IMG/VR virus record: IMGVR_UViG_3300025520_000004
Location: 1 to 64,000 of that record
Length of the DNA stretch: 64,000 nucleotides
Direction: 5' to 3' (one strand)
DNA from: a virus
The notes beneath the pieces are model-generated. The model was given only the letters and a program-made list of their open reading frames with translations. It was not told the origin of the DNA and made no database searches. Below, in pieces: positions 31,826 to 64,000 of this stretch. The stretch's first letter is position 1. Each line of letters begins with the position of its first letter. The translations under genes and the position numbers were made by a program.

Positions 31826-31862
31826 TTGAATTCTCGCATGGGGAATGCCCTTGTCACTTCCC
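31826..31862 (+). promoter_or_regulatory. Late element P3: TTGAAT-N19-TTGTCACTTCCC, then ATG
   Basis: Member of the 7-copy motif. ATG at 31863. Confidence 0.6.
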
Positions 31863-34800
31863 ATGTCAAACTCCGCATCCACTATTATACTGAACTTTAT
31901 TAAAGGAAAAAAAGGATCCGTCGGCCAAAACGTTAAGTATTATAAACGAGAATTAAAAGCTAAAGGTGGTTATCGATATTGGTATTCGAAAGAAGAATAC
32001 GAAAAAGATCATCCGGATAAAGAAACAAGTAAAGAGCTTGGGTTACTAGAAAAGATCGCTGGCTTTTTCAAAACAGATCCTAGCGATGCAAAGAAAGTTC
32101 CAAAAAAGGAATATGAGACTCACTCCATTTCTGAAAAAGGCATTTCATATCCGGAATGGACTTCTCACTTTGCAAAATATTTTGAACGTAAAGCAGAATA
32201 TGATGCAAGATTTAACCAAGAGAAAACGGCAACATCAACTAACGGTAAAATAATAGACAAAAATCAAGAAACTGTTACAAAGATTGCAGAACAAAAATCG
32301 GAATCCAAATCGATTTACAAAACTTCGATATTCCGGACTTTATTTAATTTATACGGAGAAAAAAATGTCATCGAAAGTAGCACCGGAAGAACTTTACCAG
32401 AAAATCAAAGAGAGGAATCTATCACCTCTGATGCAATACACTCCACAGTGGATTTACGAGAGCCTGGCGGGGATTTGCGAAGCAGAAAAGAAACCGATAA
32501 CAATGGACAATCTTCTACTTTACTCGGGGACGCTAAACGTGGATCTGGACATGATGTTCTCGACGGGGAGCGACTAAAGAATTTTTCCTCTCAAGTAAAA
32601 TTCATTTCAACTATGCTCGATGAAAAGGGCATAGATATCGACAAGGATCTTAACAAACCAGGTCACATCGGGCTTACTTATCGCAACCTACTTGAATTTA
32701 TTGATTCAATGCCAAAGGAAACGAAGGCTCAGATTAAAAAAACTTTCTCTCAAATCGATTTTAGAAATGGCGATATCAATCATTACTTGGATTTTCTCGT
32801 GAATGGGATGATTCAATCAATGGGGCTCAATTCAAATGTCCCTCTGTCCAGTGATGACAATGAAGAAAATGAAGTAATCAATCAAAACGCACTATCTGAA
32901 GCAATGATTGGAAATCAAAATGCAAAAAAGGATTCACCATCATTTCAACTCGTACAGGAATCTGTTCCAGAATCAAAAGGTTTCCAGAAAGAAAATAACC
33001 TTTTTGGAATAACTCCTCAAACTGAAAGGAAAATTCTTAATACGAACTTTCAGCCAAAACTTCAAGTATCGGAAGTAAAAACCATTCCTGAATTCGTAAC
33101 GATGGTCAAAGATGCACTTCTAAAAGAAGGACTCGATCAGAAAGCAGAAGAATGGGTGGACCAAGCATACAAAAGCGATGCAAAATCATTGAATGATTTG
33201 CTAAATAAGGCATATCGATTTGTTCAAATCAGTTCCGAAGATTCTAACAAGATCAGGAAAGGCTTAAAATCGATTCCTCACCAATCTAACTTGGAAACTG
33301 CTGCACAAAATGTTGAGACAATCAAAGAGAAGTTTTCCCAAAAAAAACAATTTGAAATCAATGCGAAATGCAAAGAAATTCTAGCATCGACTCCACCAAG
33401 TCAAATCACAGAAGAACAAAAAGAAATACTCCGGTTATATGAAGGTTCAGGTGGGCAGTCAACCAATGATGATGCCGAATCAAATCGGGGTATGTTGTAT
33501 CAGTTTTTTACACCAAGGAAAATGATTTCTAAAGTTCAGGATATCATGGCCAGATATCTAAAGCCGGGAGACTCAGGTTTAGAACCTAGTGCCGGTATTG
33601 GGCGTTTCGCTGAAGGTGAAGGCTCAAAATACAATTGGGATATGCTCGAATACAATCCTGATGACAATACAGCCTATCAAATCGCGCGTATCCTTCATCC
33701 CGAGGCCAATGTTTCGGACAAAGCGTTCGAGACTTTATTTGTGGATTCAAAAAATAGATCCGTAGGTGAAAACTATAAAGGGAAGAAATACAATTTTATC
33801 TCTGGGAACCCTCCTTACGGAGAGATGTCAGGAAAATTCAAAGCCATCGAAGGTAAAGGATGGAATCGTTATGAACACTATTTCATAAATCGTGGCCTTG
33901 ATACTCTTGAAGAAGGTGGGACAATGTTCTATGTGGTTCCATCCACTTTCTTGCAAGCAGGTGAAACAGCATGGAAGAAAAAGATCTTCGGTAAAGCAGA
34001 ACTTCTCGAAGCTTACCGAATGCCAGAAGGATCCTTCAGCAATACACAAATTGGAGTCGATGTAATAGTCCTTAGAAAGAATACTACAGGGACCCAGGAT
34101 AATGCCAACGCTTTCAACGGTAAGTATTTTGAGCAAAATCCAGAACATGTTTTTGGAGAAACTTTGGAAAGAACTAACAGATTTGGAAGGCCGGAAAACT
34201 ACGTTAAAGGTAAAGCCGATGCTTTCTATGAAATGAACCTCCCTGCTCCAAAAGAAATGTCTCAGGCGCAGAAGGATGCCATCTCTCTTGGCCTCATGGG
34301 CAATGAAAACGCCAAGGGGAAACGAAAAATAGAAATTGCGGAAGCAACAAAAAAGATCAATAAAACGGCCACAAAGAAAGAAGAAATCAAGAACACCATT
34401 GCAGAGAAGAAAGATCCTACAAAGAAAATTGATACTTACACGCAGGAAGAATTTAACACAAAATTCAATAAGAAGTTCACAGATAAGGATCTAGAACTTG
34501 TTCGAAACACTTCCCCTACTGGAATTATAGATGAAAAAATTCCATTCGATTCGGAAAGCATGGCTGTCCTTCCTGGTGGTGCAAGAACTCCTCTTTATCT
34601 TTATAAAGCTGGAAATATCAAACAGAAATTAATTGAACTCGAAAATTCAAAAGATGAATTGGTCTCGAAGTATGGTGAGGAACAATTTGAACGTCAAAGA
34701 AAACTCCTAATCTCGAAAGTTCCACCTAAGATCAATATCGAAGACATTACGCTAACGCCTATTGAACCGTTTTCGAAAGGAATGGTTTTCGACAATGGTG

Positions 34801-44457: not shown

Positions 44458-44505
44458 GTTTGAAATTATAAGGCAGGACTAAACATCCTGTCTTTGCAAT
44501 ATAAA

Positions 44506-46713
44506 ATGCTCACTGCAAATAGCCAAGGTAATACAGACATAGGAAATTTGACTGGGGGAGCAGCGCTTCAGAAAGATCCTTTTTCCAAATCTATCCGAGG
44601 CAAAAACTTCAAAGAATATATAAAATCTCTCAAAGGAAAATTTTTCCAAAAATCTCGTCTTAAAATTTCAAAAGAAGATTATAATTCCAATCCTACTCAT
44701 TCTCAAAAACAAGCAGGGAACTATAAAAAAGCTCACGTCAAAGTTCAAGGATTCGATATTTCCATCGAAAATCCCGAGGGAACGTATAGATGTGGAAAAG
44801 ATTCCAATGGCAAAGAATGGAAAAATAAAATGGTTCACCATTATGGCTATTTCAAAAGGACTCTTGGAAAAGACGGTGATCATATCGATTGCTTTATTGG
44901 TCCAAATATAAAATCGGAACTAGTTTTCATAATCAATCAAATCAAGCCTTCATCCGGAATTTTCGATGAGCATAAAGTCATGCTTGGATTCGATTCTTTC
45001 GAAGAAGCAAAAGAAGGATATTTAGCAAACTATTCTCCTGGTTGGAAAGGATTAGGCGATATCAAGTCCATGACTGTGGATCAATTTAGAACATGGTTAG
45101 AGAAAGCAGATACCACCAAGAAAGCAAAAGCAGTGATTATTAAATCCTCATTAAAAAACTTCTTCGTAAAAAGTAATAAAGCCCAAGTAGGTGAAACTCG
45201 TACTTGGGCCGATGGGAAGCAGCATCGTAAAACCGACAATGGATGGGTAGAAGTATCCGGTAACAAGCAGACCAGTAATCCTTCTCAAGACTCAAATGAT
45301 AAACGAAAATCAAATGTAGATTCAAATTCTAGTCAAAATAAAACTTACGAACAGAAAGCTGTTGAGGCACTTGAAAGATGGAAGGAGTTTGAGCAACTTG
45401 CTAAAGAGAGAAACAAACAGAGAATTTCTAAAATGAAGCCAGAGAAGAGAAACGAGGCATTTGATATTAAAAATGCCGAACCAGGTGATATCGTTAGGAT
45501 TGAGAGACCAATAGATGGGCGCGTAAATCGAGGCCACCTAGCGAAAGTTTTGGATAAGATTGATGGTCATCTAAAAGTTATGCTTCCTTCAGGAAGTATT
45601 TTTCTGTTTTTGGCCGCAGATCTAGCTTTTGCAAAATCAAGTAAAAAGCATTTCATTGATAAATTGTTCCCCTTCATTAAAGGAAAACTCGCTCAGGTTG
45701 GGGAAATTAGAACATGGTCTGATGGGAATAAATATCGGAAAGAATCAAATGGATGGCGAATGATTGGTGAGAGCGAGAACAAGGCTGCACATCAAACAAC
45801 TTCAAAAAAAGCAGGTATGTCCAAAGAAGAACATTCGCAAGCTACTGAAAAAGCCATGCAAAATGGGATTAAAATTCCTGTAAAAGTTTTACGAGAATAC
45901 CCCGCCCTTCTTGAAAAATATCCAAAATATAAGGAAAGAGTGAGTGCTATTGATTCTCTTTCTAAAGGGATGAAGAAAGGAGAGAAAATTGGTAATCAGT
46001 TGGAGAAGACCGCAAATACATTAAAACAAGGGAAAATTCCCGATGCAATCAAATCCATCGATTTAATCAAAACCAATCAGAATAGTTCAGAAAAAACCGG
46101 TGAAGCCAAAATCCAAGCTTCTGAAAAATTGAATAACCTAATGTCATCCAAAGGTCAACTTAAAGGGACAGTTAAAAAAATAAAATCGGAAGCCAAACTT
46201 AAACTCACTTCGAAAGAACAGAAAAGAGTGGATGACTTAGAGAACAAAAATCTTGCAACAGAAGCGATTATGGTTTATGCAAACAAACTAAAAAACAAAA
46301 AGTATTTGTTTGCACTAAAGGAAAACAGGAAAAAACATCTTAAACTCGGCCATCTTAGTAGCGAACTCAAGAAAGAAAGAGATGATATTTACCATGAAGT
46401 AATGCGAGAGTTCAAATCCGATTCGGAACGACTTGGGAAAATCAATAAACCCGAAACCTTAACAGATGCACAAATTTTTGAAAATGTAAGGGATGCTTCC
46501 CTTCTCGATTCTAAGAAGCTACAGAAAAACGTTTCTCTAATTGATGTTCAAATAGCGATGGCAGAGAAGCATGGAAACGCCAATGCACTTCGAAAATTAG
46601 AAGTCAAGGGCACGATTTACCGAGTCGCTCAACTCTTACAAAGTGATAAATCTATGACTAAGGATGACATTGCTTCTCTTGTAAGGCATGGCGCGGAATT
46701 ACCTGGCCAATGA
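44506..46713 (+). CDS. Large virion-module protein with pyrophosphatase-like N-terminal domain
   Basis: AGNYKKAHVKVQGFDISIENPEGTYRCGKD...HHYGYFKRTLGKDGDHIDCFIGPN resembles a domain often auto-annotated as inorganic pyrophosphatase in phage polyvalent proteins (from memory). Two internal copies of the shared module. The track start is TTG 44494. Confidence 0.45.
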   Translation: MLTANSQGNTDIGNLTGGAALQKDPFSKSIRGKNFKEYIKSLKGKFFQKSRLKISKEDYNSNPTHSQKQAGNYKKAHVKVQGFDISIENPEGTYRCGKDSNGKEWKNKMVHHYGYFKRTLGKDGDHIDCFIGPNIKSELVFIINQIKPSSGIFDEHKVMLGFDSFEEAKEGYLANYSPGWKGLGDIKSMTVDQFRTWLEKADTTKKAKAVIIKSSLKNFFVKSNKAQVGETRTWADGKQHRKTDNGWVEVSGNKQTSNPSQDSNDKRKSNVDSNSSQNKTYEQKAVEALERWKEFEQLAKERNKQRISKMKPEKRNEAFDIKNAEPGDIVRIERPIDGRVNRGHLAKVLDKIDGHLKVMLPSGSIFLFLAADLAFAKSSKKHFIDKLFPFIKGKLAQVGEIRTWSDGNKYRKESNGWRMIGESENKAAHQTTSKKAGMSKEEHSQATEKAMQNGIKIPVKVLREYPALLEKYPKYKERVSAIDSLSKGMKKGEKIGNQLEKTANTLKQGKIPDAIKSIDLIKTNQNSSEKTGEAKIQASEKLNNLMSSKGQLKGTVKKIKSEAKLKLTSKEQKRVDDLENKNLATEAIMVYANKLKNKKYLFALKENRKKHLKLGHLSSELKKERDDIYHEVMREFKSDSERLGKINKPETLTDAQIFENVRDASLLDSKKLQKNVSLIDVQIAMAEKHGNANALRKLEVKGTIYRVAQLLQSDKSMTKDDIASLVRHGAELPGQ

Positions 46714-51187: not shown

Positions 51188-52972
51188 ATGGGCGTTTTAG
51201 GAAAAGCATTCGAGGGACGTTCTTACGTTCGACCAGGTTCGAGAGGAAAATTTCGTGCTAAGGATCAAATCCCTGGCGATTCTGTTGATCTATTCACTCA
51301 ATTAATTATTGGGCAAGCCGACAATGGTGTAAATTGTAATGATACAAATTTACCAGATGACGAAAGATATTATATTTTTTACTCGTTCGATGAGGCGAAA
51401 AAAGTTCTAGGTGGTGGCGAACTTTTGGAAGCGATTATGCTTGCAGATACTCCATCTAGCGAAGATGATTTTGCGCCTGGACCACAACGATTCATAGCAC
51501 TCAATACAAGAGCAAATGTGGCTGCAAGTGCATCCATTCCTTCATTAAAATCAGGGCAATCTCATACTCTTACCTTCCCTATCCCTGGACCGAAAGGGAA
51601 AAAAGTTCGATTCCGTAAAACGGTAGCGACGAAACAAATTGAGATTGGTGATAACGAAGGTATTCTCACCTCCCCTGCTCTTGAACAAAAAGTTTTAACC
51701 ATATCTTATTCCGGAGATGCGACTTCTGCGATTCTTTCCGTTAATGGAACCGCTCTAATTGTAACCTTGGCAGGTCAAAATGATGGATCACTTTCACTTT
51801 CTGTTCCATTTGCTGACTATCCTACAGCTATTGAAGCTGTGGATTATATCAATTCTATCCCATTTTACACTGCGTCAATGATGTCCAATGCAACATTTTT
51901 GATGTCCAATTTGGATCATGTTGAAACAGAGGATGCAATTTCAGTAAAAAGTCCTGCTATTGCGACTGCCTATGCTGATTTGTTTGCTGAGAAGAATTGG
52001 ATTGAGTCTACAGGATTTGCAGTATTTACAACGGCCGCGACCGTTAAAAAACCTTTTGCAAACAATACAATATTCACTTACCTAACCACTGGTGGTACAA
52101 CAGGTACGGAAGGAGTTACTGCTGTTAAAGATGCGATTACATTTGCAAAGAAAATTCCTGCAATGTATCGTAATATTCTCGCATCCTCCTTATCTGACAA
52201 AGTGCATTTTAAAACCGCTTGCTACGATATGATTTCTCCGGATGGAGGGAAGGAAACGATTGGTGGTTGTGGTGGAGATTTGTCGTTATCTGTTGACGCA
52301 AGGCGTGAAGAAGCTCGCACTTTGGGCGTTTATTGGATGAACTACGGACTTGAGAAATTTGTGGCATTCGATCTTGCAGGAAATCAGAAAACTTATCCTG
52401 GTTATATGCTTTCTGTTTTAGATAATGCAATTTCCGCTGCAAACTCTCCTAGACATTCCCCAACCTGGAAAGCACTCAATATCCTAAAAAGTGCTGAAAA
52501 CCTCATCGATTCTGTTCGTGATGCGTCAATTCGGGATGGAGCATTAGTACTAACTAAAAATCCTGAGAATGGTGCAATGATCATCGAACGCTCCGTTACA
52601 ACGGAAAGAAAAGATAACCTGGTACTTAATGAGAAAAACAGTGTTGCGGTTGCCCTTACAATGGTACGTGAGCTAAGACAAGGATTCAATTCTCGATTTA
52701 TCGGTCGTTCCACGGTAGATGAAAATGCCAAAGTCCAAGGTGTGACAGTTGCAGATGTCCAAGGCTATGTCGAACAAAGGCTTCAATCATTTGTCGAGAA
52801 AGGATACTTGGTCGGATCCTCAAAACTTGGTGTAGATGCTTTTCTTCGGGACTTCATTATTGAAGTTGATGGAGACACATGGTTTTTCCGAAAGTTAGAT
52901 GGTATCGTTACTTCTCCCATAAATTTCATTTTCTACATTCTATCTCTTGATACTCTCAAAGGAAGTGCATAA
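51188..52972 (+). CDS. Tail sheath protein
   Basis: 594 aa, followed by a 149-aa tube-size protein, chaperone pair and tape measure. This is the canonical contractile-tail order. Confidence 0.65.
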   Translation: MGVLGKAFEGRSYVRPGSRGKFRAKDQIPGDSVDLFTQLIIGQADNGVNCNDTNLPDDERYYIFYSFDEAKKVLGGGELLEAIMLADTPSSEDDFAPGPQRFIALNTRANVAASASIPSLKSGQSHTLTFPIPGPKGKKVRFRKTVATKQIEIGDNEGILTSPALEQKVLTISYSGDATSAILSVNGTALIVTLAGQNDGSLSLSVPFADYPTAIEAVDYINSIPFYTASMMSNATFLMSNLDHVETEDAISVKSPAIATAYADLFAEKNWIESTGFAVFTTAATVKKPFANNTIFTYLTTGGTTGTEGVTAVKDAITFAKKIPAMYRNILASSLSDKVHFKTACYDMISPDGGKETIGGCGGDLSLSVDARREEARTLGVYWMNYGLEKFVAFDLAGNQKTYPGYMLSVLDNAISAANSPRHSPTWKALNILKSAENLIDSVRDASIRDGALVLTKNPENGAMIIERSVTTERKDNLVLNEKNSVAVALTMVRELRQGFNSRFIGRSTVDENAKVQGVTVADVQGYVEQRLQSFVEKGYLVGSSKLGVDAFLRDFIIEVDGDTWFFRKLDGIVTSPINFIFYILSLDTLKGSA

Positions 52973-52975
52973 GCC

Positions 52976-53425
52976 ATGCCAGATATCTCAATTGGTGACA
53001 TACCAGATACTTCGATCCTAGTTGGATCCAATGCTCAAGTCTACATAGATGGAAAACTTGCTGCTTATGTGGATGATATAGATGTCGATGAAAACTATAA
53101 CCAAACTGACATTCGTGCAATTGGTGATTTTTTCCCGAAGGATACAAAAGCATTATTCTTTGATGGCTCATTTTCTGGAAAAATGTGGGTTATCACGGAT
53201 GAAAAAGATCCTGGCTCTATTGTAAAGTCTCTCCCTGATTTAACTAATATCTTAACTAAAAAAGGGAATTTGTGGGAATTTAGGGAAAAAAGTACCGGGA
53301 AACGAATTATGCGTTGCGTAGCAAAACTCAATACTCGCAGAACAAATATTTCAACTACACAACCAAGTGTTAGAAATGTTTCCTTTAAGATAATTCGAAT
53401 TCAACACATGGAAGGTGATAACTAG
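52976..53425 (+). CDS. Tail tube protein
   Basis: Size and position. Confidence 0.6.
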   Translation: MPDISIGDIPDTSILVGSNAQVYIDGKLAAYVDDIDVDENYNQTDIRAIGDFFPKDTKALFFDGSFSGKMWVITDEKDPGSIVKSLPDLTNILTKKGNLWEFREKSTGKRIMRCVAKLNTRRTNISTTQPSVRNVSFKIIRIQHMEGDN

Positions 53426-54106: not shown

Positions 54107-55816
54107 ATGGCTGAAGTACTCATTGATATAGACAGTATCGCATCGAAACTAGCGCAAAAATTAGGACCAGAAATAGTCTCTGAAATTTCCAAACGCCAAA
54201 AAGGTGCTGGTGGAGGTTCAGGAAGTGGAAATAGGAAGACAGGCGGAAGTTCTGGCGGAGGTGAGAAACCAAAGAAAAAGGAACTTACTGAAAACCAAAA
54301 ACGAACCCAATCGCTTGGAGAGGGATATCAGGCCGGTGCAGACGCAAGTCCTCTTGACCAAGATTCTTCAGAATTGCGATCAGGTCGATTCTCAGGTATT
54401 ATCAATCGGAAAATTCAATCAGCCAGAAAAATCAAAGACACAACTAAGAATGAATGGGATAAATATAAAATCAAAACAGGGAAATCCGATAAGGATGATG
54501 GAAACTCAGAAGATAATGGTCATGGGTTAGGAGTCGGAGCACCATCACCTAACGCCAAATCGAAATACAACATTCTTGAAGTTAAAGAAGCAAGGATTAT
54601 GAATCTATACTTGAAAGGAGGCTTTGGTGGATCTGGTGCATTTGGTGGAGGTGTCGGAATACCTGGTCGAGGTGGTGGAACAGGGTCTTCTCCGAATGTA
54701 CCTGAAGGTGAAAATACTCAAACTAAAACAATGGGTCGAGTTGCAGGGATTGTCGCACCAGCTTTAATGGGGGTTGGTGCGCTTGCCGGTTTCACGTTGA
54801 ATACTATCTCAACTATGGCAGGTATGAACCAACAAGTCAAACAAGCACAAGAAGGAACAAATGCAGCATATGGGGGTATTGCTACTGGGGGTGGAGGTTT
54901 GATGCGGAACCCAGAAGTCGCACAAATGTCAATTGCAAGAGCAAGAGTTCTTGGAGGCGATGCCAGAGGACACAACTTAGAGAACTCTGGTAGTTTATTG
55001 GGAGCACAGTTTGGCGTAACTCAAGGGATCGGCGGAACTGCCGGAGCAGAGATGTTTGCGAAATTAAATAAATTCGGTGGATTTCAGGAGAATGAATCTG
55101 CACTTAAAAAAATTATGGCCGATGGAATCCGTTCTGGATTTGGAGGACTAAGACAAGCTGAGTTTCTACAACAGGTATCGGGAATTTCTGAAAATGCCTA
55201 TAATTCAGGGATGGGAATTCAATCTGCGGAGCAGGTTGCCGGATCTCTTTCCAATTTAAAGGATGCAGGTGTAAGAGATAATCGAATAAGTTCTGTATAT
55301 AATGCTATGAACGAAAACATGACGAAAGATGGAGGGCAAATGAATTCAATGTTAGTTGCTCACCATATGCAACAGAATGGCGGGGATTATTTAGCAGCAA
55401 TGGCAGCAGCAGAGGAAGGTATGGGCTCCCGTGCAAATACTGCAGCTATTAATCAAATGACACAAGGAATGGATCCAAAAACAAAAGCTATTTGGCTAAA
55501 AAAGCAAGGGGTAATCACAGCTACCGAAGGACAGAATTCTGTTCAATTAGGAAAAGATATACTCGATGTCAGCCAGTCCACTTCTAATATTGCAAATGAG
55601 GGTGCAATAGCTGCAGATCGAGTTAGTGGGTATAATGGCCAAACTCATATTTCACACGCAAATAAACTTGATGAAATGGCCATCACAGATGTTTTCGATA
55701 AAGCAAACCAAATTCAAAATAAAATATTTGATGGTATGATGAAAATGGCTGATCATCTCGACGAGCAGTATAAAAGCATAAAAGCCAAGGCTGCAAAGAT
55801 TGGAATAAATTTATAG
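54107..55816 (+). CDS. Tape measure protein
   Basis: Gly-rich N-terminal region, hydrophobic segment VAGIVAPALMGVGALAGFTL, and position after the chaperones. Confidence 0.7.
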   Translation: MAEVLIDIDSIASKLAQKLGPEIVSEISKRQKGAGGGSGSGNRKTGGSSGGGEKPKKKELTENQKRTQSLGEGYQAGADASPLDQDSSELRSGRFSGIINRKIQSARKIKDTTKNEWDKYKIKTGKSDKDDGNSEDNGHGLGVGAPSPNAKSKYNILEVKEARIMNLYLKGGFGGSGAFGGGVGIPGRGGGTGSSPNVPEGENTQTKTMGRVAGIVAPALMGVGALAGFTLNTISTMAGMNQQVKQAQEGTNAAYGGIATGGGGLMRNPEVAQMSIARARVLGGDARGHNLENSGSLLGAQFGVTQGIGGTAGAEMFAKLNKFGGFQENESALKKIMADGIRSGFGGLRQAEFLQQVSGISENAYNSGMGIQSAEQVAGSLSNLKDAGVRDNRISSVYNAMNENMTKDGGQMNSMLVAHHMQQNGGDYLAAMAAAEEGMGSRANTAAINQMTQGMDPKTKAIWLKKQGVITATEGQNSVQLGKDILDVSQSTSNIANEGAIAADRVSGYNGQTHISHANKLDEMAITDVFDKANQIQNKIFDGMMKMADHLDEQYKSIKAKAAKIGINL

Positions 55817-55831
55817 GTCAAATTTCAATAA

Positions 55832-56416
55832 TCAGTTTTCGTCAATTTTGAAAACAGATTCTAAATTATTAATTTTTGCAGTTACTCGTAATCCGTCAAA
55901 ACTATCATAAAAATATAGATCATCGAATCTAGGTTTCGGAATTTGAAAAGTCCCATTAATAGAGAAATCTCCTTTCCCATGTGTTTCATCTTCAAGCTTT
56001 TCATATAATGCCAAATTAGTTAGCTGGTGTTTAGGGCATCTATTCTTATCGCCTTGGTAACATATAGAAAAAGATCCAGCATTCTTATAATATTTCTTTT
56101 CGCTGGCAAATTCATTTTTCATTTCATCTGTAAATTTAATATCCAAGCACTGAATCACATATTCAGGAAGTCTTCCCCTTCTCTTTATGACTCTCAAATT
56201 TTCGTCTGGTATGATTTGCGTTCCAATAGTAATAAAAGTTTTAAGTTTTGTTTCGACTTCACCTTGCAGTCGTTCCCCTTTCACAGTGAGCCCTTTTTGT
56301 TTCAGGTCAGCTGCTTCCTTCCCCTGCGCTATCACTTCGCAAAACGCTTTGTTATCCAGGGTTTTGGCGGAGAGGGAGAAAGTTAAAATTAAAGAAAGGA
56401 AAACTATTCTGATCAT
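55832..56416 (-). CDS. Secreted protein (moron)
   Basis: Signal peptide MIRIVFLSLILTFSLSA. Confidence 0.45.
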   Translation of the reverse strand: MIRIVFLSLILTFSLSAKTLDNKAFCEVIAQGKEAADLKQKGLTVKGERLQGEVETKLKTFITIGTQIIPDENLRVIKRRGRLPEYVIQCLDIKFTDEMKNEFASEKKYYKNAGSFSICYQGDKNRCPKHQLTNLALYEKLEDETHGKGDFSINGTFQIPKPRFDDLYFYDSFDGLRVTAKINNLESVFKIDEN

Positions 56417-56447
56417 TGCCTAATCTAGACGTAGGCGGTAATGCTTG

Positions 56448-56696
56448 TCAAGGTTTTTGGGTCTGGGCAAATTCTATGAAAACTTTTTCGCAGTCATCGA
56501 TTTTAGATTTCCATTGAGAGAGAAAACTTTTATGAATCTTTGTATTTGTATTTTCTCTTCTTGGAATTTTCAGTAATTCAATCAAGATACCATTTCTTTG
56601 TATCTGGAAAATCGTCCATTGTTCTTTATTTAATATGGTTACACCTTTGCTATTCGCATATTCAACTATTTCTTTTAGAGCGTCTTGAAATAACAT
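56448..56696 (-). CDS. Hypothetical small protein
   Basis: Its start is separated from the stop of the 179-aa gene by a single base. Confidence 0.4.
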   Translation of the reverse strand: MLFQDALKEIVEYANSKGVTILNKEQWTIFQIQRNGILIELLKIPRRENTNTKIHKSFLSQWKSKIDDCEKVFIEFAQTQKP

Positions 56697-56697
56697 T

Positions 56698-57237
56698 TTA
56701 GTTTACTGTCTGTAAACCTCGTTCCTCCAAGATTTCATACTCAAAATTCTTGTAAGTTTCCGGTTGAGAATGAATATCATGAGTTTTACCCGTAACCACT
56801 TTTCGGGTATCGAGGTAATTCGCTAATCCAGTTATGCTTTTAAAGAAAGTTGCATTCTTTATTTCATTGAATTTATCCCAAATAACTTGAGGGCATTTGT
56901 TTAATACAATTTGCTCCACTAGGTCTTTGTCTTTTCCTTGAACACTTAAATAATTTGTTAAATTGTCTATGAAGGTGTGAATCAATTCCGTTTTCAATAC
57001 TCTATGGGTGCTATTCCCAAAAGTCGCCCTGTCCGAAAAAAGGAAATCTCCTGTATCCAGACATAAAAATCCAATATTTTCATTGTCATCATCAAACGAA
57101 ATGAAATGTAAATGATAGTCTAAGCTTGGGTTTCTAGAAAATTGCGAATCATCTTTGTCCCTGTAAAAAGCCCATAAATGAGAAACCGCTATTGATTTCG
57201 CATTTTTTACGACTAAATCCGTAAACTCCTGATCCAT
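56698..57237 (-). CDS. Hypothetical protein
   Basis: First gene of a tight two-gene unit. No family recognised. Confidence 0.45.
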   Translation of the reverse strand: MDQEFTDLVVKNAKSIAVSHLWAFYRDKDDSQFSRNPSLDYHLHFISFDDDNENIGFLCLDTGDFLFSDRATFGNSTHRVLKTELIHTFIDNLTNYLSVQGKDKDLVEQIVLNKCPQVIWDKFNEIKNATFFKSITGLANYLDTRKVVTGKTHDIHSQPETYKNFEYEILEERGLQTVN

Positions 57238-57549
57238 TTTTTTATTGCCTTACTTGTAATTCGTTCTTCTAATTATGTCTAAGAGCCCAGAAAGTCGGCC
57301 CGAGTTGAAACATTTACCGATTTTTTATTTAACGACGGTAATCTTTAGACCACTTTTTAGATTATGTCTTTACTATCGTCAATTTTTTTAATTATTTAAC
57401 TCCAAATTTGAAGCAATTTCCTCCTATTATCTAATTAGTGGCAATTTATTCGGTTTTTGCTCTCTGAGGCTCAGAACTGCAAACTCTCCTCGTTGATGTT
57501 GTATTTTAACGTAAGGGGAACGATTGCGCAGTATGAGCTTGGTTCAGTA

Positions 57550-57828
57550 TTATTTTTTGTGAAAAGAAAGCGCACTTCCAGAAGCGCCATAGCAAATTGA
57601 AGTGGAATTCTCACATCGGACTACCCCTGCCATTGCCAGCATTCCGCCTTCACTATTGGGATTGGTCAACTCTGACAGCATTTTAACTATAGGTGAGTCA
57701 TCACCTGCAATAATTCTAATTTGCTTGCAGACCAAATCATGCCCGGTGGCCCCATTCGGATTTTCGTCTTTACTGAAAATAGGAAATGTAATTGTCAAAA
57801 AGAAAAGTATGAATAGAAAATTTTTCAT
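57550..57828 (-). CDS. Small secreted protein
   Basis: Signal peptide MKNFLFILFFLTITFPIFS. Three Cys residues in the mature part. Confidence 0.45.
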   Translation of the reverse strand: MKNFLFILFFLTITFPIFSKDENPNGATGHDLVCKQIRIIAGDDSPIVKMLSELTNPNSEGGMLAMAGVVRCENSTSICYGASGSALSFHKK

Positions 57829-58101
57829 GAGCTAACTTAAGGTGAGGCGAAAAAATGAGTCAATTCTAATTGTAAATCAATACGAAATAAATTAAGTCAA
57901 AGCAAATCGAGAACAAACATACAACTACCGTATTAAAAACGAAAGCCTTACCATAAGTCCCAACGTGCGCTAGGGTTTGAAAAATGCACAAGGAATAGCA
58001 GAAGACTATTTGTCGCAGACCGATAGAGGCTGACAATAAAATCCAAACCAGGCGTTTATTCTATATTATGTGCTTTTTAAATTAAAATTAATACATATTG
58101 C

Positions 58102-59247
58102 TTATTTATTTGATTCAATCAAGAATTGCTTTACCTTAGGCATTCTAAGTTCATATTTTGCTTTTTTATAAAGATCTCCTTTGATTGATACCTTTTTTAA
58201 ATCCTTGTGTGCCCCAAGTGCAGAGTTATAATCGATTTCGTTCAATTCAATTATTATTTCTGTTTTTCTATTTTTGCTCGGAGAGATTTCATTTGACTCT
58301 GAAGTTTTTATTGTTCCGGAAATTGTAACTGTTCTTTTCTGGTCTTTGGAAGACCTAAATAATAAATCTTTATTTTTATCTTGAGTGGCAATTACATATC
58401 CTTCGATTGTCACATCTAATATTGGGTTTTGTTCTTTTAAGGTTATAGATGCTTGCTCTAATATTTCATAATTTTCTGATTTTAAAATATAAGGTTTAAT
58501 GATATTTAGATTTCGTTTTTTATATAAAAATGATGCATCAAATGTAATTGTATTTGAATCTAATTTTCTCGCGATATTTGCAAGAGCGTCGCACATGTTT
58601 GCGTTAAAACCACTTTGATAATTGTTTACAATAATACTTTCATTATTTTCTTTAATTGCATGTGTTAGATTTTGAAATCCTGTGAATATACGATCGATGA
58701 CTTTTTCTTCAATAGTAATTTCATCATTTTCAAAAAGATAACTTTCTTCTTTGCCTAGTTCAACCGAAAAGCCAAAACTTCCTTTAAATGTATGCGGGAA
58801 CGAGAGTTTCGATACAGTATCTTTTGCTTTTTTAGGTGCCTCCAAAAAATAAGCAACTGGATTAAATTCAAAAGAATACCCATATAGAAGAAGAAAATAT
58901 AGGTTGTTGATTGTTATTCTTGTAAAATTCAGTGGAATTTTATTAGTGTTTTGGCCTTTATTTATTAAGGCTTTAAAAACTGCAAAGTAAACATCAATTA
59001 TCTCCTTTGCAATCTCATCGATACTCTTTTTGTATATTATAGAGAGAGTTTTAAGTACAGAATTTATTCTATCATTATAATCATCATAAGAATTAGAACG
59101 AGGGAAGACTAAACTTATTGGTTTATTTAATTTCTCAGGTGCCTCAAAAAAGAAAATGCCAGGATTGGTGTGAGGAATTATTCTCCACCCTAACTTTTCA
59201 AGATACGTTTTGATTTTTTCCGCAGGTAAATTGTTAAAATTAAGCAT
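58102..59247 (-). CDS. Unknown 381-aa protein, partner of the DUF4365-like protein
   Basis: Starts 2 nt after the DUF4365-like gene stop. No recognisable motif. Confidence 0.5.
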   Translation of the reverse strand: MLNFNNLPAEKIKTYLEKLGWRIIPHTNPGIFFFEAPEKLNKPISLVFPRSNSYDDYNDRINSVLKTLSIIYKKSIDEIAKEIIDVYFAVFKALINKGQNTNKIPLNFTRITINNLYFLLLYGYSFEFNPVAYFLEAPKKAKDTVSKLSFPHTFKGSFGFSVELGKEESYLFENDEITIEEKVIDRIFTGFQNLTHAIKENNESIIVNNYQSGFNANMCDALANIARKLDSNTITFDASFLYKKRNLNIIKPYILKSENYEILEQASITLKEQNPILDVTIEGYVIATQDKNKDLLFRSSKDQKRTVTISGTIKTSESNEISPSKNRKTEIIIELNEIDYNSALGAHKDLKKVSIKGDLYKKAKYELRMPKVKQFLIESNK

Positions 59248-59249
59248 AA

Positions 59250-59780
59250 CTAAAATTCACCATGTTGAAGTTTTTCTACTAGATTCGAGAGTTCTTCTGC
59301 AGTGAGCAAGTTTTTACGAGGGATTTTGAGAGTTACCTTACTATCTGCTGGTTTCCTTTCTTTATCTGTTATATCATACCAGTAACACGCACGCTTAAGG
59401 ATTAAGCAATCTTCGTTTACATTTAACCAACTATTTTCATCTACAGGTAAGCAAAATGCGATTAAAATTTGTCTGAGACTCCTTCTGTTATTATTTGCAA
59501 CAAATTTGTTAAAAGCGTTACTAGCAATAGTAAACGTTACAAAGTCATCTTTAAAATCATAATTTGAGGATGATTTTAGTTGAAAGCAAAGGGGGTATCC
59601 AATTTCAGTCATTTCATTCTTTTGATTTTCATTCACTTCAACAAAAACTTTGGAAAATCTACCATCAATTCCATAGTCAAAATTTGCATCATTGATGCGA
59701 ATTAATAACCCAGCTTTCCCGGCAATGGCCTGAACATAAGATATACTTAGGCTTTCTTTTCTATGGTTTTCAGTAATCAT
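59250..59780 (-). CDS. DUF4365-like PD-(D/E)xK nuclease-fold protein
   Basis: SLSISYVQAIAGKAGLL...DYGIDGRF...CFQLKSS fits the DUF4365 pattern (D..D ... Q-x-K), from memory. Confidence 0.55.
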   Translation of the reverse strand: MITENHRKESLSISYVQAIAGKAGLLIRINDANFDYGIDGRFSKVFVEVNENQKNEMTEIGYPLCFQLKSSSNYDFKDDFVTFTIASNAFNKFVANNNRRSLRQILIAFCLPVDENSWLNVNEDCLILKRACYWYDITDKERKPADSKVTLKIPRKNLLTAEELSNLVEKLQHGEF

Positions 59781-60002
59781 TTTTTGAAAGACCTACAAAT
59801 ACATTTACAATATAAGACTTGAATGAGCATTAATATTTTTCAAATAGACTTATTAGTGTTATCATAAAGTTTCCGCTTATATTTAGTTTTTAATTAGATT
59901 TATTAAAAAATCGCACTTAACTCATATTATCAATATATAACACCTTTTTAGGGAGAAATCAGAAAATTTATCACTTTTCCAATCTATTTCGGAATTAATT
60001 AT

Positions 60003-62783
60003 TTATTTTGCGTTTTTTCTTCCTTTTTTAGCTGGGATTTTAATCTGCGAAGTCAATGTATTTGTGTATTTTTCGTAGAGCTCAAAAAGGAACTCTACTC
60101 TCTCAGATTCAGACTGAAATGGCTTCGACCGATAAGCCTTGTCCACGGCTTTATCCAGCTTGTTGTGGGCATCTCTAAGAACTTTTGGCATAGTTAGTGG
60201 GTCGTAGAGATCAGCAAGCGATGACTCAGGGAATTGCGCTCTTGCATCCAAAACAGATTTGGCAAATGATTCTATTTCTACCTTTTGTTTCTCAGTCGGA
60301 TCTTCTGGCCATGGGAAGTTGTTGTAGACAATATCTTTTGAATATCGATAATCTCCCTTAATTCTACCACATACAACTCGCATCCAAGCATTATGCATAA
60401 GTGAAGTTATTATCCCAAAATGATAACGGTTTGCATTTTGAATTGAAAAACAACTATCTGCAACTATGTCATTTTTTGAAAAAAAGCCAAACGGAACATA
60501 CAATCGATTTTCGGAAGAATGTCTAGGAACTAAAATATAGTCAGACTTCGGCTGTGTAACTTGCCTAAAAAGATGATGATATTTATAAGATCTTGTAGAT
60601 AGTGCTTTACTCTCCAATCGGAACTTCCGAACCTTTTCAATTCGCTTCATAATGAATGGAATATCTTTGTATTGAGATGGATCTACTTCATCCAACCAAA
60701 TACAATATCTTTTTAACCCGTTTAGATATTCTTTCGCGCTTACAAAGGGGCGAACAAATTCTTTAATTCGATTATCATCTAGTATTGCAGCATTAAATTC
60801 TTCTTCTGTTAAAAGAAAATTTCCATCATCAGTTGGTTTTGAACCATAAAGCATTTTTGGAGTATGATCAAAAAGAGGATGACTTCTGTTATCAAGAAAT
60901 ATATTTTTCCCTTGGTTTAGATAAGGGTTTATATTAGATGCATTCTTCTCAACTGGTTCAGCATTAGCATTTTCATAAAAGAAGATTCTTTTATTTCTTT
61001 TTTCTATTTTTGAAAACCCAATTATTACGCAAAAGACTGCAGCTTTCCCTTTTGCCTCATTACTCCATTTAAAGGTTCTATGAGCGAAAAAAATTGAGAC
61101 CCCATATTTTTCAATCATAGGCTTCCAAAAGATTCCTACTTGCTCGCCTTGAGTTATTGAATTTGTCGAAACAAATGCAACAAGTATGTTTGGATTTTTT
61201 TGAATGTATCTAGCAGCCAACATATACCACGCACAAACATAATCCATTACACCTGAAGCCTGAATTTCATTTAGTACTACATTGAGTTCTTCTTTCTGGG
61301 CTGTTGTTTGTAAATGATGACCAATAAATGGAGGATTCCCCAGAATGTATGAAATTTCATTCGGGCTGATTATTTCTTCCCATTTCAATTTTAGAGCATT
61401 CCCAAAGACAATCATTGGAGATTTCTTCAATGGGAGCCTAACGTAATACTCTCCAAATTCTTTACCTGTTTCGACATTCATCAAATGATCCATAATCCAT
61501 ATTGCCGTTTTTGCAATTTGAGCAGGAAATTCTTCGATTTCAATACCGTATAAACAATCAACATCGAGACTTTCAAGTGTTTGAATTGATAACTCAAGTC
61601 CAAGTCCTTTGAGTTTTCTGATTTCCTTTAATAAATTGATTTCAAGACGTCGAAGTTCGCGGTAGGATAAAATTAAAAAGTTACCGCAACCGCAGGCTGG
61701 ATCTAGTATTTTAATTTTTCTAATCCGAGCCAATAGGTCATCGAGCCCTTTAATACTCTTCTTTGATTTTAAAGTTTCAAATTCTTCCAGCAGATCATCC
61801 AGAAAAAGTCCATGAATAGTCTTTAATATATTCTTTTCACTCGTGTAGTGTGCTCCAAGCTCTCTCCTTTCAGCGGTATTCATTACAGATTGGAATAAAC
61901 TTCCGAAAATAGCAGGGCTAACAAGAGCCCAATTAAATTCGCAAGTTTGAATTAAAATATCGCGTAACACACTATCAAATTGTGCGAATGGAATTGATTC
62001 TTCAAATAATTGCCCATTGACATAAGGGAATTTTGCAAGGTCTTCATCTAGATTTGCGAGCCTTTGTTCCGTAGGGGTATTGAGTACTTGGAAAAATTGA
62101 GCAATCCAAAGCCCTAAGTCGCTACCATCCTGCTTGGTACGTTCTTTCAGGAAGAAAAGAAAATCGTCTTTATTGAATATTCCAGTATCATCGGCAAAGA
62201 AACAAAACATCAGACGAACAAGCATAAGTTTTAGAGGATGTTCCTGGAATCCATTCCTCTTTAGCTCATCATGCAATTTCTTCATGAGCTCTGCAGCTTT
62301 GATATTTACTGGATCTTCATCTTTGTATTCCCGCTGTTCATATCCGAGTAAAAAATTAAATCGTTGAAGGTGATCTAGAAGATCGGTGATTTTAAATTCT
62401 ATTGATTTTTTATGGTCTGTAAAATTTACCAATCGAAGTCTTTCAAAATCGCATACACAAATATAACTTGGAAGTTCTTCATCAGGGATGCCTCCGGTTA
62501 AACAGTAGTCTAATGCTTGTTTATACGCTTTATCTAAATCTTCACCACGACTCTTCTGTTCTATCAGAATTGTTTTGGGCCAGAAATAGTCTATAAATCC
62601 CGTCGTTTGTTTTAAAGTTTTTGCTCTCTCTTCAAAGATCCCTACCTTTTTGGCGCTAATTCCCCATATATTAAAGAAATCTCTCCAGAATATTTGAGAT
62701 TCCCCCTTTTCGTATTTGTCATCTTTATGGTCGTGAATAAATGAAATTGCTCTAGATTTGATTTCGTTAGGTGATAATGCCAT
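60003..62783 (-). CDS. MmeI-like Type IIL/IIG restriction-modification enzyme
   Basis: 926 aa. N-terminal nuclease motif IDYFWPKTILIEQKSRG (D...ExK). MTase motif I LDPACGCGNFL, motif IV GNPPFIG. Confidence 0.8.
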   Translation of the reverse strand: MALSPNEIKSRAISFIHDHKDDKYEKGESQIFWRDFFNIWGISAKKVGIFEERAKTLKQTTGFIDYFWPKTILIEQKSRGEDLDKAYKQALDYCLTGGIPDEELPSYICVCDFERLRLVNFTDHKKSIEFKITDLLDHLQRFNFLLGYEQREYKDEDPVNIKAAELMKKLHDELKRNGFQEHPLKLMLVRLMFCFFADDTGIFNKDDFLFFLKERTKQDGSDLGLWIAQFFQVLNTPTEQRLANLDEDLAKFPYVNGQLFEESIPFAQFDSVLRDILIQTCEFNWALVSPAIFGSLFQSVMNTAERRELGAHYTSEKNILKTIHGLFLDDLLEEFETLKSKKSIKGLDDLLARIRKIKILDPACGCGNFLILSYRELRRLEINLLKEIRKLKGLGLELSIQTLESLDVDCLYGIEIEEFPAQIAKTAIWIMDHLMNVETGKEFGEYYVRLPLKKSPMIVFGNALKLKWEEIISPNEISYILGNPPFIGHHLQTTAQKEELNVVLNEIQASGVMDYVCAWYMLAARYIQKNPNILVAFVSTNSITQGEQVGIFWKPMIEKYGVSIFFAHRTFKWSNEAKGKAAVFCVIIGFSKIEKRNKRIFFYENANAEPVEKNASNINPYLNQGKNIFLDNRSHPLFDHTPKMLYGSKPTDDGNFLLTEEEFNAAILDDNRIKEFVRPFVSAKEYLNGLKRYCIWLDEVDPSQYKDIPFIMKRIEKVRKFRLESKALSTRSYKYHHLFRQVTQPKSDYILVPRHSSENRLYVPFGFFSKNDIVADSCFSIQNANRYHFGIITSLMHNAWMRVVCGRIKGDYRYSKDIVYNNFPWPEDPTEKQKVEIESFAKSVLDARAQFPESSLADLYDPLTMPKVLRDAHNKLDKAVDKAYRSKPFQSESERVEFLFELYEKYTNTLTSQIKIPAKKGRKNAK

Positions 62784-62866
62784 CGGTATGCAAAATTGAA
62801 ATACAAGGAACTAATGAGTCAACCAATTTGGATAATGTAGAGGCTCTCTTGTTTGATTCTTTTCCG

Positions 62867-62903
62867 TTGACAAATTACAAAATCCACGAATTTGTCCCTT
62901 CTC
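62867..62903 (+). promoter_or_regulatory. Late element P7: TTGACA-N19-TTGTCCCTTCTC, then ATG
   Basis: Member of the 7-copy motif. ATG at 62904. Divergent from the restriction-modification gene. Confidence 0.55.
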
Positions 62904-63593
62904 ATGGCAGAATTCCCATCATTTGGAAGACAATTAAAGGTTGCTTTCGCTCCACCAGGACTTGCGCAGCCAGGGGTAATGAATGGATTGGAACTCGGTG
63001 AAATTGATTCTCTCAGTGGTGGGCTCATGAAATACCGAGCTGACATTCGTCTTTTCAATGGCCAGATTCTAAAGAAAGTACGCCTCCCAGGACCTTACAT
63101 CGGTCTTTTGGGGTTTCTATCTGGATTCAAATTTGGATATAGAGAAGGACAAATGGTGCTTGTTGGATTTCTCCAAAATCGTAGGGACAATCCGATAGTC
63201 ATCCAAGTGTATCCTTTCGCAGCAGAGACAAAAGGAAAAAGTTCACTTCTCAAACATTCTACACAATTCGATTCTGAAGAAACATCCGTCGGCCATGAAT
63301 CTGGCCATCGAACAAAATGGGATAAAAATAAAGTTCTCTTTAAAGATAAATTAGATACTACCAGAGTCCAAATCGATCACACAATTCCACCAATCCTAAA
63401 CTCTCTGGAAAAAGCTGCACAAGGAGAAACTTTGAAATCAATCCTGGAAGAAATCTGTGACGAAATCACTAAAATCACGGTTCAGTGTACAGCGCCTGGG
63501 ACATCGAGCTTAACACCAGATAACTCGGCCAAGTTTCTTGTGATTAAGGGAAAATTGAACACAATCCTTTCCGAGGTTTTAAAACACTACTAA
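62904..63593 (+). CDS. Baseplate hub/spike (gpV / Mu gp45-like) candidate
   Basis: GQMVLVGFLQNRRDNPIVIQVYPF resembles the OB-fold block of gpV-type spikes. First tail gene after the island. Confidence 0.45.
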   Translation: MAEFPSFGRQLKVAFAPPGLAQPGVMNGLELGEIDSLSGGLMKYRADIRLFNGQILKKVRLPGPYIGLLGFLSGFKFGYREGQMVLVGFLQNRRDNPIVIQVYPFAAETKGKSSLLKHSTQFDSEETSVGHESGHRTKWDKNKVLFKDKLDTTRVQIDHTIPPILNSLEKAAQGETLKSILEEICDEITKITVQCTAPGTSSLTPDNSAKFLVIKGKLNTILSEVLKHY

Positions 63594-63970
63594 TGAATTT
63601 TTGGGAGCACTTCGAGATAGACAAAGACCATTTACATGAAACCAGTTTTTCGTTTGTGAAAGCTAAAACTAAAACTAGGCATTCATGCGAATTTTGCTCA
63701 GATCATTGGGGAACAGTGGTGAGACTTTTCAAAAGTCAAAGTGATTTTGAGAATTCAAGTTTCTATGGTGGTGAAGATATTGTAAAAGGAGATCCAAAAG
63801 CAAAAATCGCTGTGTGGCCAGGAAAAAATAACGTAGGTAGAGATAAAAACTCATATTGGTTATGCGCTCCTGTTCATCCACTTTGCGGCTGTGAAATTGA
63901 AGTTGAAGATACTATTCATGAATCAAAAGAGGATTTAGAAGACTGGTATTCAACTTTAGAATGGGACTAG
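63593..63970 (+). CDS. Small Cys-containing baseplate-module protein
   Basis: ATGA-type junction. CEFC ... CGC possible zinc site. Confidence 0.4.
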   Translation: MNFWEHFEIDKDHLHETSFSFVKAKTKTRHSCEFCSDHWGTVVRLFKSQSDFENSSFYGGEDIVKGDPKAKIAVWPGKNNVGRDKNSYWLCAPVHPLCGCEIEVEDTIHESKEDLEDWYSTLEWD

Positions 63971-64000
63971 TCCATTTCCCAAGCCGCGTTTTCGATTCGT

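Follow-up and report, generated by a model that had tools for sequence, protein, structure and literature searches.

The 64,000-nucleotide stretch of DNA analysed here (the window; positions 1 to 64,000 of the IMG/VR virus record IMGVR_UViG_3300025520_000004) carries two adjacent minus-strand genes within its tail region, and they raise the question of what a phage would do with a predicted nuclease and a companion protein of an unannotated family. Gene A (59250..59780) encodes a protein of 176 aa and gene B (58102..59247) a protein of 381 aa. A sequence-only reading of the window had described them as coupled genes 2 nt apart and as a candidate two-gene defence cassette of no named system. 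Both open reading frames (ORFs) proved to be exact, and the spacer between them (59248..59249, minus strand) is the 2-nt stretch of the junction TAG-tt-ATG, in which TAG is the stop codon of A and ATG the start codon of B. This short distance suggests translational coupling of the two genes.

The window is similar to LE1, a temperate phage of Leptospira biflexa: 78% of its last 20 kb aligns with LE1 at 86.8% identity. The same three genes occur at the same place in LE1, namely gp39 (a counterpart of the MmeI-like restriction gene next to A), gp38 (A) and gp37 (B), all three listed as hypothetical proteins. Based on the results given below, we suggest, with moderate confidence, that the pair is anti-phage cargo of the PDC-M02 type carried by an LE1-like temperate plasmid-prophage, in which the DREN-type nuclease A would be licensed by the putative sensor protein B.

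Membership of the pair in PDC-M02

The failure of the sequence-only reading to place the pair in any named system has to be corrected, because a PADLOC run assigned both proteins over their full length to PDC-M02. Against PADLOC-DB v2, A matched PDC-M02A (PDLC04290) with an E-value of 4.7e-50 over residues 1–173 of 176 and profile positions 1–165 of 170, and all 25 PADLOC matches of A were PDC-M02A models. B matched PDC-M02B (PDLC04333) with an E-value of 4.4e-65 over residues 5–377 of 381 and profile positions 11–376 of 379. The genes are adjacent, lie on the same strand and follow the order A then B, which is the architecture of this system, and the obligate pairing described below is shared as well. 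The sequence evidence thus makes membership in this catalogued candidate anti-phage system well supported.

PDC-M02 comes from a set of 145 untested candidates, termed "guilt-by-embedding" (Payne, Hughes, Fineran & Jackson 2024, bioRxiv 10.1101/2024.01.29.577857), which were chosen as genes recurrently embedded in BREX, DISARM or type I restriction–modification (RM) systems. Supplementary file 8 of that work lists FAM_01850>>FAM_00842 with the number 894, apparently the count of PDC-M02 instances, and the remark 'Assign as candidate PDC-M02'; the paper gives the candidate no domains, mechanism or test (bioRxiv 10.1101/2024.01.29.577857). The family is therefore already known as a candidate. 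What the present analysis adds is the structural match of A to the effector of SPARDA, an initial outline of the domains of B, figures on the obligate linkage of the two genes and the exchange of a phage-borne cassette. A stand-alone DREN system was not found in the literature search.

Two features set the window pair apart from PDC-M02 as catalogued. A temperate phage carries it, next to a single-gene type IIG enzyme and not within a type I RM, BREX or DISARM locus, and the B proteins of the Leptospiraceae clade differ at positions conserved across the family, for example in having E181 in place of R. It is worth adding an observation on this clade: its B proteins also diverge at Y124, P151, G165, T178 and T288, all of which are at least 84% conserved in the family.

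Predicted nuclease and its partner protein

The nuclease fold and PD-(D/E)xK-like motif that the sequence-only reading had seen in A were borne out by Pfam, by residue conservation and by structural comparison. A matched Pfam DUF4365 (PF14280) with an E-value of 2.4e-16 and 60.5 bits, against a cut-off of 24.3, and carries the intact DxGxD...QxK signature of this family in the motifs D35-Y-G-I-D39-G and F66-Q67-L-K69-S-S. In 50 B-linked homologues of A, D39 and K69 were invariant, and E9, D35 and Q67 were at least 90% conserved; these five residues (E9, D35, D39, Q67 and K69) are predicted from sequence to form the active site. The corresponding residues have been studied in characterized relatives. 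In EAT16, a toxin of an extracellular contractile injection system (eCIS), the DxGxD...QxK residues are individually required for toxicity (PMC11297309); in TmuRE the corresponding residues are Q62/K64 (PMC10810196), and in XauSPARDA the mutated active-site residues were E37 and D41 (bioRxiv 2025.04.08.647717).

The AlphaFold2 (AF2) model of A (pLDDT 89.3, pTM 0.84) consists of a single domain followed by a short strand and a helix at the C-terminus (residues 148–172). The top Foldseek matches in the Protein Data Bank (PDB) were the DREN-APAZ chains of SPARDA (9qcc, 9jt2 and 9vx6; E-values from 2e-5 to 4e-4, probability 1.0), followed by a tier of archaeal Hjc resolvases (1gef and 1ob8; E-value 5e-3). 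Judging from this model, A is predicted to be a stand-alone DREN nuclease. At the sequence level, neither the single sequence nor a 50-sequence profile gave a significant match in the PDB, and A matched none of the Argonaute-associated (Aga/APAZ) models of PADLOC at E<=0.1; by sequence, A is a separate clade.

The comparison with SPARDA is instructive for how A might work. The DUF4365/DREN nuclease family and its motif are common to both, and SPARDA chains are the best structural matches of A. On their own, DREN domains are inactive monomers, and tetramerization switches them on; in SPARDA, DREN becomes a non-specific DNase only once an Argonaute filament has gathered four copies of it (PMC12205087; bioRxiv 2025.04.08.647717). 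By analogy, SPARDA and the window pair likely share the logic of a nuclease that stays inactive by itself until a partner licenses it. The difference is that the pair includes neither an Argonaute nor an APAZ region, and that A is a free-standing protein of 176 aa. No Piwi or MID match was obtained with Pfam and PADLOC for B or any other gene of the island, and no Argonaute, APAZ or prokaryotic Argonaute (pAgo) fold occurred among the best 50 Foldseek matches listed for B, although the set of structures searched does contain such proteins. Because the pair shows no features of this kind, guide-directed recognition is not expected.

Other relatives of A are more distant in organization. In Divona, from a Vibrio integron cassette, and in EAT16, a DUF4365 nuclease domain likewise serves as the toxic or defensive effector, but both are single polypeptides without a B-like partner, the domain being fused to crr6 in Divona and found in an eCIS-delivery context in EAT16. 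Members of the B family gave no match to crr6. The Hjc resolvases and Mrr-type nucleases share the PD-(D/E)xK core fold with A, whereas a sequence-level match is absent and the gene context and partner are different. DUF4365 is assigned to the Mrr subfamily in the literature only; neither A nor B matched Pfam Mrr_cat or Mrr_N at E<=0.1.

As for B, the absence of a recognized family held up in Pfam, NCBIfam, PHROGs and the PDB. When 80 diverse members of its family were compared with Pfam one by one, only scattered chance matches (E>0.01) appeared, and profiles of 10 and 80 sequences found no significant PDB relative. The family itself is large. A profile search of 1.84 billion sequences returned 4249 cluster representatives at 50% identity (E<=1e-3), with lengths of about 380 aa; the proteins are single-domain-sized and reach 413 aa among the 150 matches listed.

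The AF2 model of B was built from a 10-sequence alignment and has a pLDDT of 74 and a pTM of 0.64. It shows an N-terminal alpha/beta domain (about residues 1–100), a mostly helical middle part (about 101–275) and a C-terminal region (276–374), where DSSP assigns the order b1-b2-b3-helix-b4-b5, that of an oligonucleotide/oligosaccharide-binding (OB) fold. The sequence-only reading had proposed a Foldseek comparison of this protein, and in the best 50 PDB matches listed, only OB-fold families recurred at high probability: single-stranded DNA-binding proteins (SSBs) of many species, RPA32/14, PriB, Stn1-Ten1, the OB domain of PolC, the N-domain of lysyl-tRNA synthetase and the wedge of RecG. The comparison thus gave OB matches with probabilities of up to 0.99, yet with E-values of only 0.05–0.3 and a target-normalized TM of about 0.5, and the region has a pLDDT of 43–79. 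From the model, a C-terminal OB fold is probable.

Conservation in 215 members of the family peaked in the middle domain at residues 141–220, which hold FGHTFxGSFGF, R181, R186 and GxNANMC(D/E), and in the helix 341–360 with its surroundings (Y340, A343, A346 and H347). The N-terminus, residues 241–260 and the loop regions of the OB domain were the most variable. The residues S157, H347 and D85, together with C219, led us to consider a serine hydrolase or a cysteine protease. This reading was dropped because C219 is only 82% conserved, GSFG stands at the start of a strand and not at a nucleophile elbow, and support from the fold is absent.

Linkage, neighbourhood and exchange of the cassette

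Co-occurrence of the two families was a check proposed with the original description of the cassette. The scan used one genome per species and started from B only, with patterns taken from its conserved motifs; it yielded 80 loci, which were then searched with A and B profiles. A lay directly upstream of B on the same strand at 79 of the 80 genomic loci, pairs that had decayed together or were cut by contig ends being counted: 74 loci had an intact A, 2 had a contig end inside A, and at 3 both genes were frameshifted together. The only locus without A (L040) holds a remnant of B truncated at both ends, beside an IS91-like transposase gene. In the cleanly called pairs (n=67), the genes overlapped by 4 nt in 46 cases and by 1 nt in 6.

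The same arrangement was found in viruses. In IMG/VR, the pair was present in 11 of 11 further viral contigs with enough upstream sequence. A search started from A with a 15-sequence alignment gave four viral loci, all with B downstream, and added one viral contig (L098), where B again followed. The pairing of A and B is far beyond chance, the co-occurrence check was passed, and the description of the genes as a two-gene cassette gained accordingly.

The pair has spread widely by horizontal transfer. Its bacterial hosts belong to Leptospiraceae, Chloroflexota, Alpha- and Gammaproteobacteria, Cyanobacteria, Acidobacteriota, Chlamydiae, Firmicutes, Planctomycetes and Myxococcota, and its archaeal hosts include Methanothrix, Methanophagales, Methanoperedens and Halobacteria. 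The homologous pairs are mostly chromosomal, and some are on plasmids. A tblastn search of 50,697 deposited phage genomes found LE1 as the only match to the pair. Between the window and LE1, the amino acid identity is 87.5% for A and 91.9% for B, and the ratio of nonsynonymous to synonymous substitution rates (dN/dS) is 0.17 for A and 0.06 for B, which shows that both genes are kept by purifying selection.

The neighbourhoods of the pair in other genomes were surveyed through 90 large neighbours at 49 loci. Among their Pfam families, Eco57I/MmeI-type methylase (6), N6_Mtase (5), ResIII (3) and AAA_21 (3) were the most frequent, and IS66 transposases occurred in two. A type IIG-like gene was found within 6 kb at 7 of the 80 genome loci, LE1 and the window being excluded. 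On the 28-kb spirochaete plasmid p28 of Entomospira culicis (L102, NZ_CP118183.1, 14355–27356), the pair, named "DUF4365 domain-containing protein" and "hypothetical protein" in RefSeq, has as its neighbours two recombinase genes, three DUF262 genes, a gene of the Abi family and a gene for a HicA toxin, next to which a helix-turn-helix gene is found. This region of p28 is a compact defence island. Over all loci, the association of the pair with defence genes is real but modest, in agreement with the report that embedded candidates associate less with other systems (bioRxiv 10.1101/2024.01.29.577857).

A pair that adjoins restriction enzymes might itself be a restriction enzyme, and such neighbours are present both here and at the 7 of 80 loci, in addition to the DUF262 (GmrSD-like) genes of p28. 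In that case, the two proteins would form a two-subunit type IV (Mrr-like) endonuclease, B reading a modified base or structure and A cutting the invader without suicide of the cell. The D...QxK form of the motif in A and the possible nucleic-acid-binding OB fold in B are compatible with this. However, A has no Mrr_cat match at E<=0.1, B matches no family of modified-base readers or DNA-binding proteins, and the pair has no NTPase. Furthermore, the only characterized DUF4365 nucleases cut non-specifically once activated (PMC10810196; PMC12205087; bioRxiv 2025.04.08.647717). We regard a type IV enzyme as unlikely, and return to PDC-M02 cargo with a licensed nuclease as the preferred interpretation of the pair.

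In the window itself, the neighbour of the pair is a gene for an MmeI-family type IIG RM enzyme of 926 aa (60003..62783, minus strand, with the stop codon at 60003). Its product contains all five Pfam domains of the family (MmeI_N, MmeI_hel, MmeI_Mtase, MmeI_TRD and MmeI_C) and scores 1160 bits with the PADLOC model REase_MTase_IIG. Together with A and B, it belongs to a minus-strand block (55832..62783) flanked by plus-strand tail genes on one side and plus-strand homologues of gp40/gp41 on the other. On the tail side, these are a tail sheath gene (51188–52972), a tube-like gene (52976–53425) and a glycine-rich gene in the usual position of the tape measure (54107–55816), together with genes for chaperone-like proteins, all on the plus strand. 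To call this an accessory island within the tail region beside an RM enzyme, as had been done from the sequence, was a fair description.

Between the MmeI-like gene and A lies the presumed regulatory region of the cassette (59781..60002, minus strand). This gap, described earlier as AT-rich and 222 bp long, has that length and a GC content of 22.5%. The promoter that had been attributed to it was left unconfirmed, since a scan for sigma-70 patterns found no minus-strand consensus promoter in the 222 bp. The same simple scan found no terminator after the MmeI gene. The one ground for proposing that the cassette has its own promoter is that the gap travels with it.

The fate of the cassette can be followed in a second LE1-like element, the near-identical sister phage L094 (IMGVR_UViG_2879636102_000002, 79.6 kb). 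A blastn comparison aligned the window with L094 at 55989–57852 (97%) and at 60013–64000 (95.6%), and the interior did not align: window positions 57853–60012 are replaced in L094 by 3275 bp (L094:3851-7125). The exchangeable module so delimited (57853..60012, minus strand) comprises both genes, the gap upstream of them and 249 bp on the downstream side, and its GC content is 29.7%, compared with 37.8% for the whole window. The upstream gap (59781..60002) falls both in the segment swapped in L094 and in a segment that aligns to LE1 at 85%. The 249 bp, on the other hand, do not align with LE1, and no conserved non-coding element was found 3' of B. No direct or inverted repeats that would suggest site-specific recombination were seen at the boundaries of the swap, and an Rfam search of 55500–63200 gave a single sub-threshold chance match.

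In place of the module, the 3275-bp segment of L094 carries an ABC-3C (ABC-three-component) conflict system of three genes. The first encodes a protein of 309 aa with a restriction-endonuclease-like N-terminus and ABC-3C CTD12, the second a middle component of 85 aa (MC8/MC6), and the third a DUF2326 ABC ATPase of 617 aa that is PDC-M68B-like and LmuB-like. None of the three is homologous to A or B. Even so, the two systems are alike in their position downstream of the MmeI-like gene, in their orientation and in having a restriction-endonuclease-like effector gene first. These phages thus have a hot spot for immunity-type cargo downstream of the MmeI-like gene, where the PDC-M02 module, its upstream gap included, is a unit that can be dispensed with and exchanged. 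The swap for ABC-3C is natural genetic evidence that the pair behaves as dispensable and exchangeable immunity cargo.

The location of the genes on a phage, adjoining the MmeI-like gene, also invites an explanation in terms of the phage itself. The pair could serve the life cycle or counter-defence, for example in the breakdown of host DNA or the processing of replication intermediates, or it could supply accessory subunits of the MmeI-like enzyme. Outside SPARDA, the nearest structural relatives of A are Holliday-junction resolvases. L094 retains the flanks and the MmeI gene, whose product is 98% identical in amino acid sequence to that of the window, and lacks both A and B; the pair is thus dispensable for the phage and for the enzyme. 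In addition, about 90% of the homologous pairs have no type IIG gene nearby, most lie in bacterial or archaeal chromosomes, and LE1 was the only match among the 50,697 phage genomes. A function of this kind is very improbable, since L094 and the mostly chromosomal location of the pair all but exclude it, and the role of B as an accessory of the MmeI enzyme was rejected on account of the enzyme retained in L094 without the pair.

Another explanation starts from the replicative state of the element. According to references given in PMC6078989, LE1 replicates as a circular plasmid in L. biflexa, and the pair might be an addiction (toxin–antitoxin-like) module with A as the toxin and B as its neutralizer, mainly stabilizing the plasmid-replicating LE1-like element rather than blocking phages. 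The tight coupling of the genes, the presence of the pair on plasmids and the toxicity of a DUF4365 domain in Escherichia coli (PMC11297309) would fit such a role. Nevertheless, B is a large protein of 381 aa and the slower-evolving of the two (dN/dS of 0.06 vs 0.17 for A), unlike typical small and labile antitoxins; the nuclease gene comes first; and most homologous pairs are chromosomal. The family was picked for its embedding in restriction, BREX and DISARM loci (bioRxiv 10.1101/2024.01.29.577857), and isolated DREN domains are inactive and not constitutively toxic (PMC12205087; bioRxiv 2025.04.08.647717). Finally, the sister phage holds another conflict system in the slot, not a stability module. 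An addiction module seems quite unlikely to us, and we retain the interpretation of the pair as exchangeable PDC-M02 defence cargo.

Several side observations concern this island. The MmeI-like enzyme is about 73% identical to LE1 gp39, compared with 88–92% for the adjacent A and B, and from these differing identities the island is a mosaic; the specificity of the restriction enzyme may vary from one of these phages to another. Four more island genes without a family match are located at 55832–57828 on the minus strand and encode proteins of 194, 82, 179 and 92 aa. The genes for the 82-aa and 179-aa proteins are missing from LE1 and 100% identical in L094, and the 92-aa product contains several cysteines and begins with a hydrophobic stretch that looks like a signal peptide.

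Proposed action and other genes of the window

Based on the above, we suggest the following mode of action for the pair; what is inferred in it is that the pair acts in defence, that B is the sensor and that oligomerization activates A. A would be the effector, a stand-alone DREN-type DNase, and B its obligate partner. A resembles a DREN domain plus a C-terminal extension and is never found without B, and the most economical model has B as a licensing partner like APAZ/pAgo. In uninfected cells, B would hold or ignore A and so keep it harmless. B would then sense infection. The cue bound by its C-terminal OB-like domain would most likely be a nucleic acid, for example single-stranded DNA or replication intermediates; a phage protein would be an alternative cue. 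Upon sensing, B would gather A subunits into an active oligomer, which is a tetramer in SPARDA. The non-specific degradation of DNA that follows would stop the incoming phage or kill the infected cell, and as an outcome, the lysogen population and the resident prophage would be protected from superinfection.

A more specific version of this scheme is possible, and we put it forward only tentatively. It supposes an Argonaute-independent use of DREN, in which the protein B of about 380 aa, with its OB-like domain and an invariant polar pocket, replaces the pAgo/APAZ scaffold, senses phage nucleic acid or protein directly and assembles free 20-kDa DREN subunits into a tetramer. Temperate phages would trade this module as a barrier to superinfection.

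A number of points weigh against the proposed nuclease–sensor scheme. The licensing of A by contact with B is putative, the A–B pairing being known from the genes alone. The OB call comes from a shallow 10-sequence model and weak Foldseek E-values (>=0.05), and its C-terminal placement is a reading of the secondary structure, the Foldseek output giving no query range. The most conserved residues of B (W21, D85, S157, R181, R186, Y340 and H347) might line a fixed pocket or form a catalytic site, which the sensor model leaves unexplained, and the Leptospiraceae proteins (those of the window, LE1 gp37 and L002) carry E181, where 97% of the 215 members have R. As regards gene context, the large neighbours are mostly ordinary genes, so that the enrichment of defence islands is modest. 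An experiment on PDC-M02 was not found, the name 'PDC-M02' occurring in no main text of the literature searched, and PDC-M02 was not among the eight candidates tested in a later cold-seep study.

Taken as a working model, the scheme has the merit of being concrete and testable: it describes a two-gene system without an Argonaute, starting from a DREN nuclease that is inert until oligomerized. If it is true, the DREN effector would be a portable module for unrelated sensors, and a function would be assigned to a large unannotated family with more than 4000 clusters at 50% identity in bacteria and archaea. A native experimental system is available in L. biflexa with the phages LE1, LE3 and LE4 (PMC6078989) and in shuttle vectors derived from LE1.

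Outside the island, several other genes of the window deserve mention. In the head-morphogenesis region, an ORF of 1979 aa (31845–37784, plus strand) contains an Eco57I-like N6-adenine methylase segment (aa 632–722) and SNF2 helicase domains (aa 1140–1308 and 1637–1695). This architecture resembles that of the capsid-packaged anti-restriction protein DarB of phage P1. The 739-aa counterpart of the LE1 gp25 'tail protein' (44494–46713, plus strand) matches InPase (PF18823) at aa 70–203 with an E-value of 1.3e-55; structural genes do not usually have so strong a match to this domain. At its far left, the window encodes on the minus strand a ResIII/DEAD-type helicase of 501 aa (428–1933) and a protein of 779 aa with a P-loop AAA_29 segment (3237–5576); these two could be replication genes or further conflict genes.

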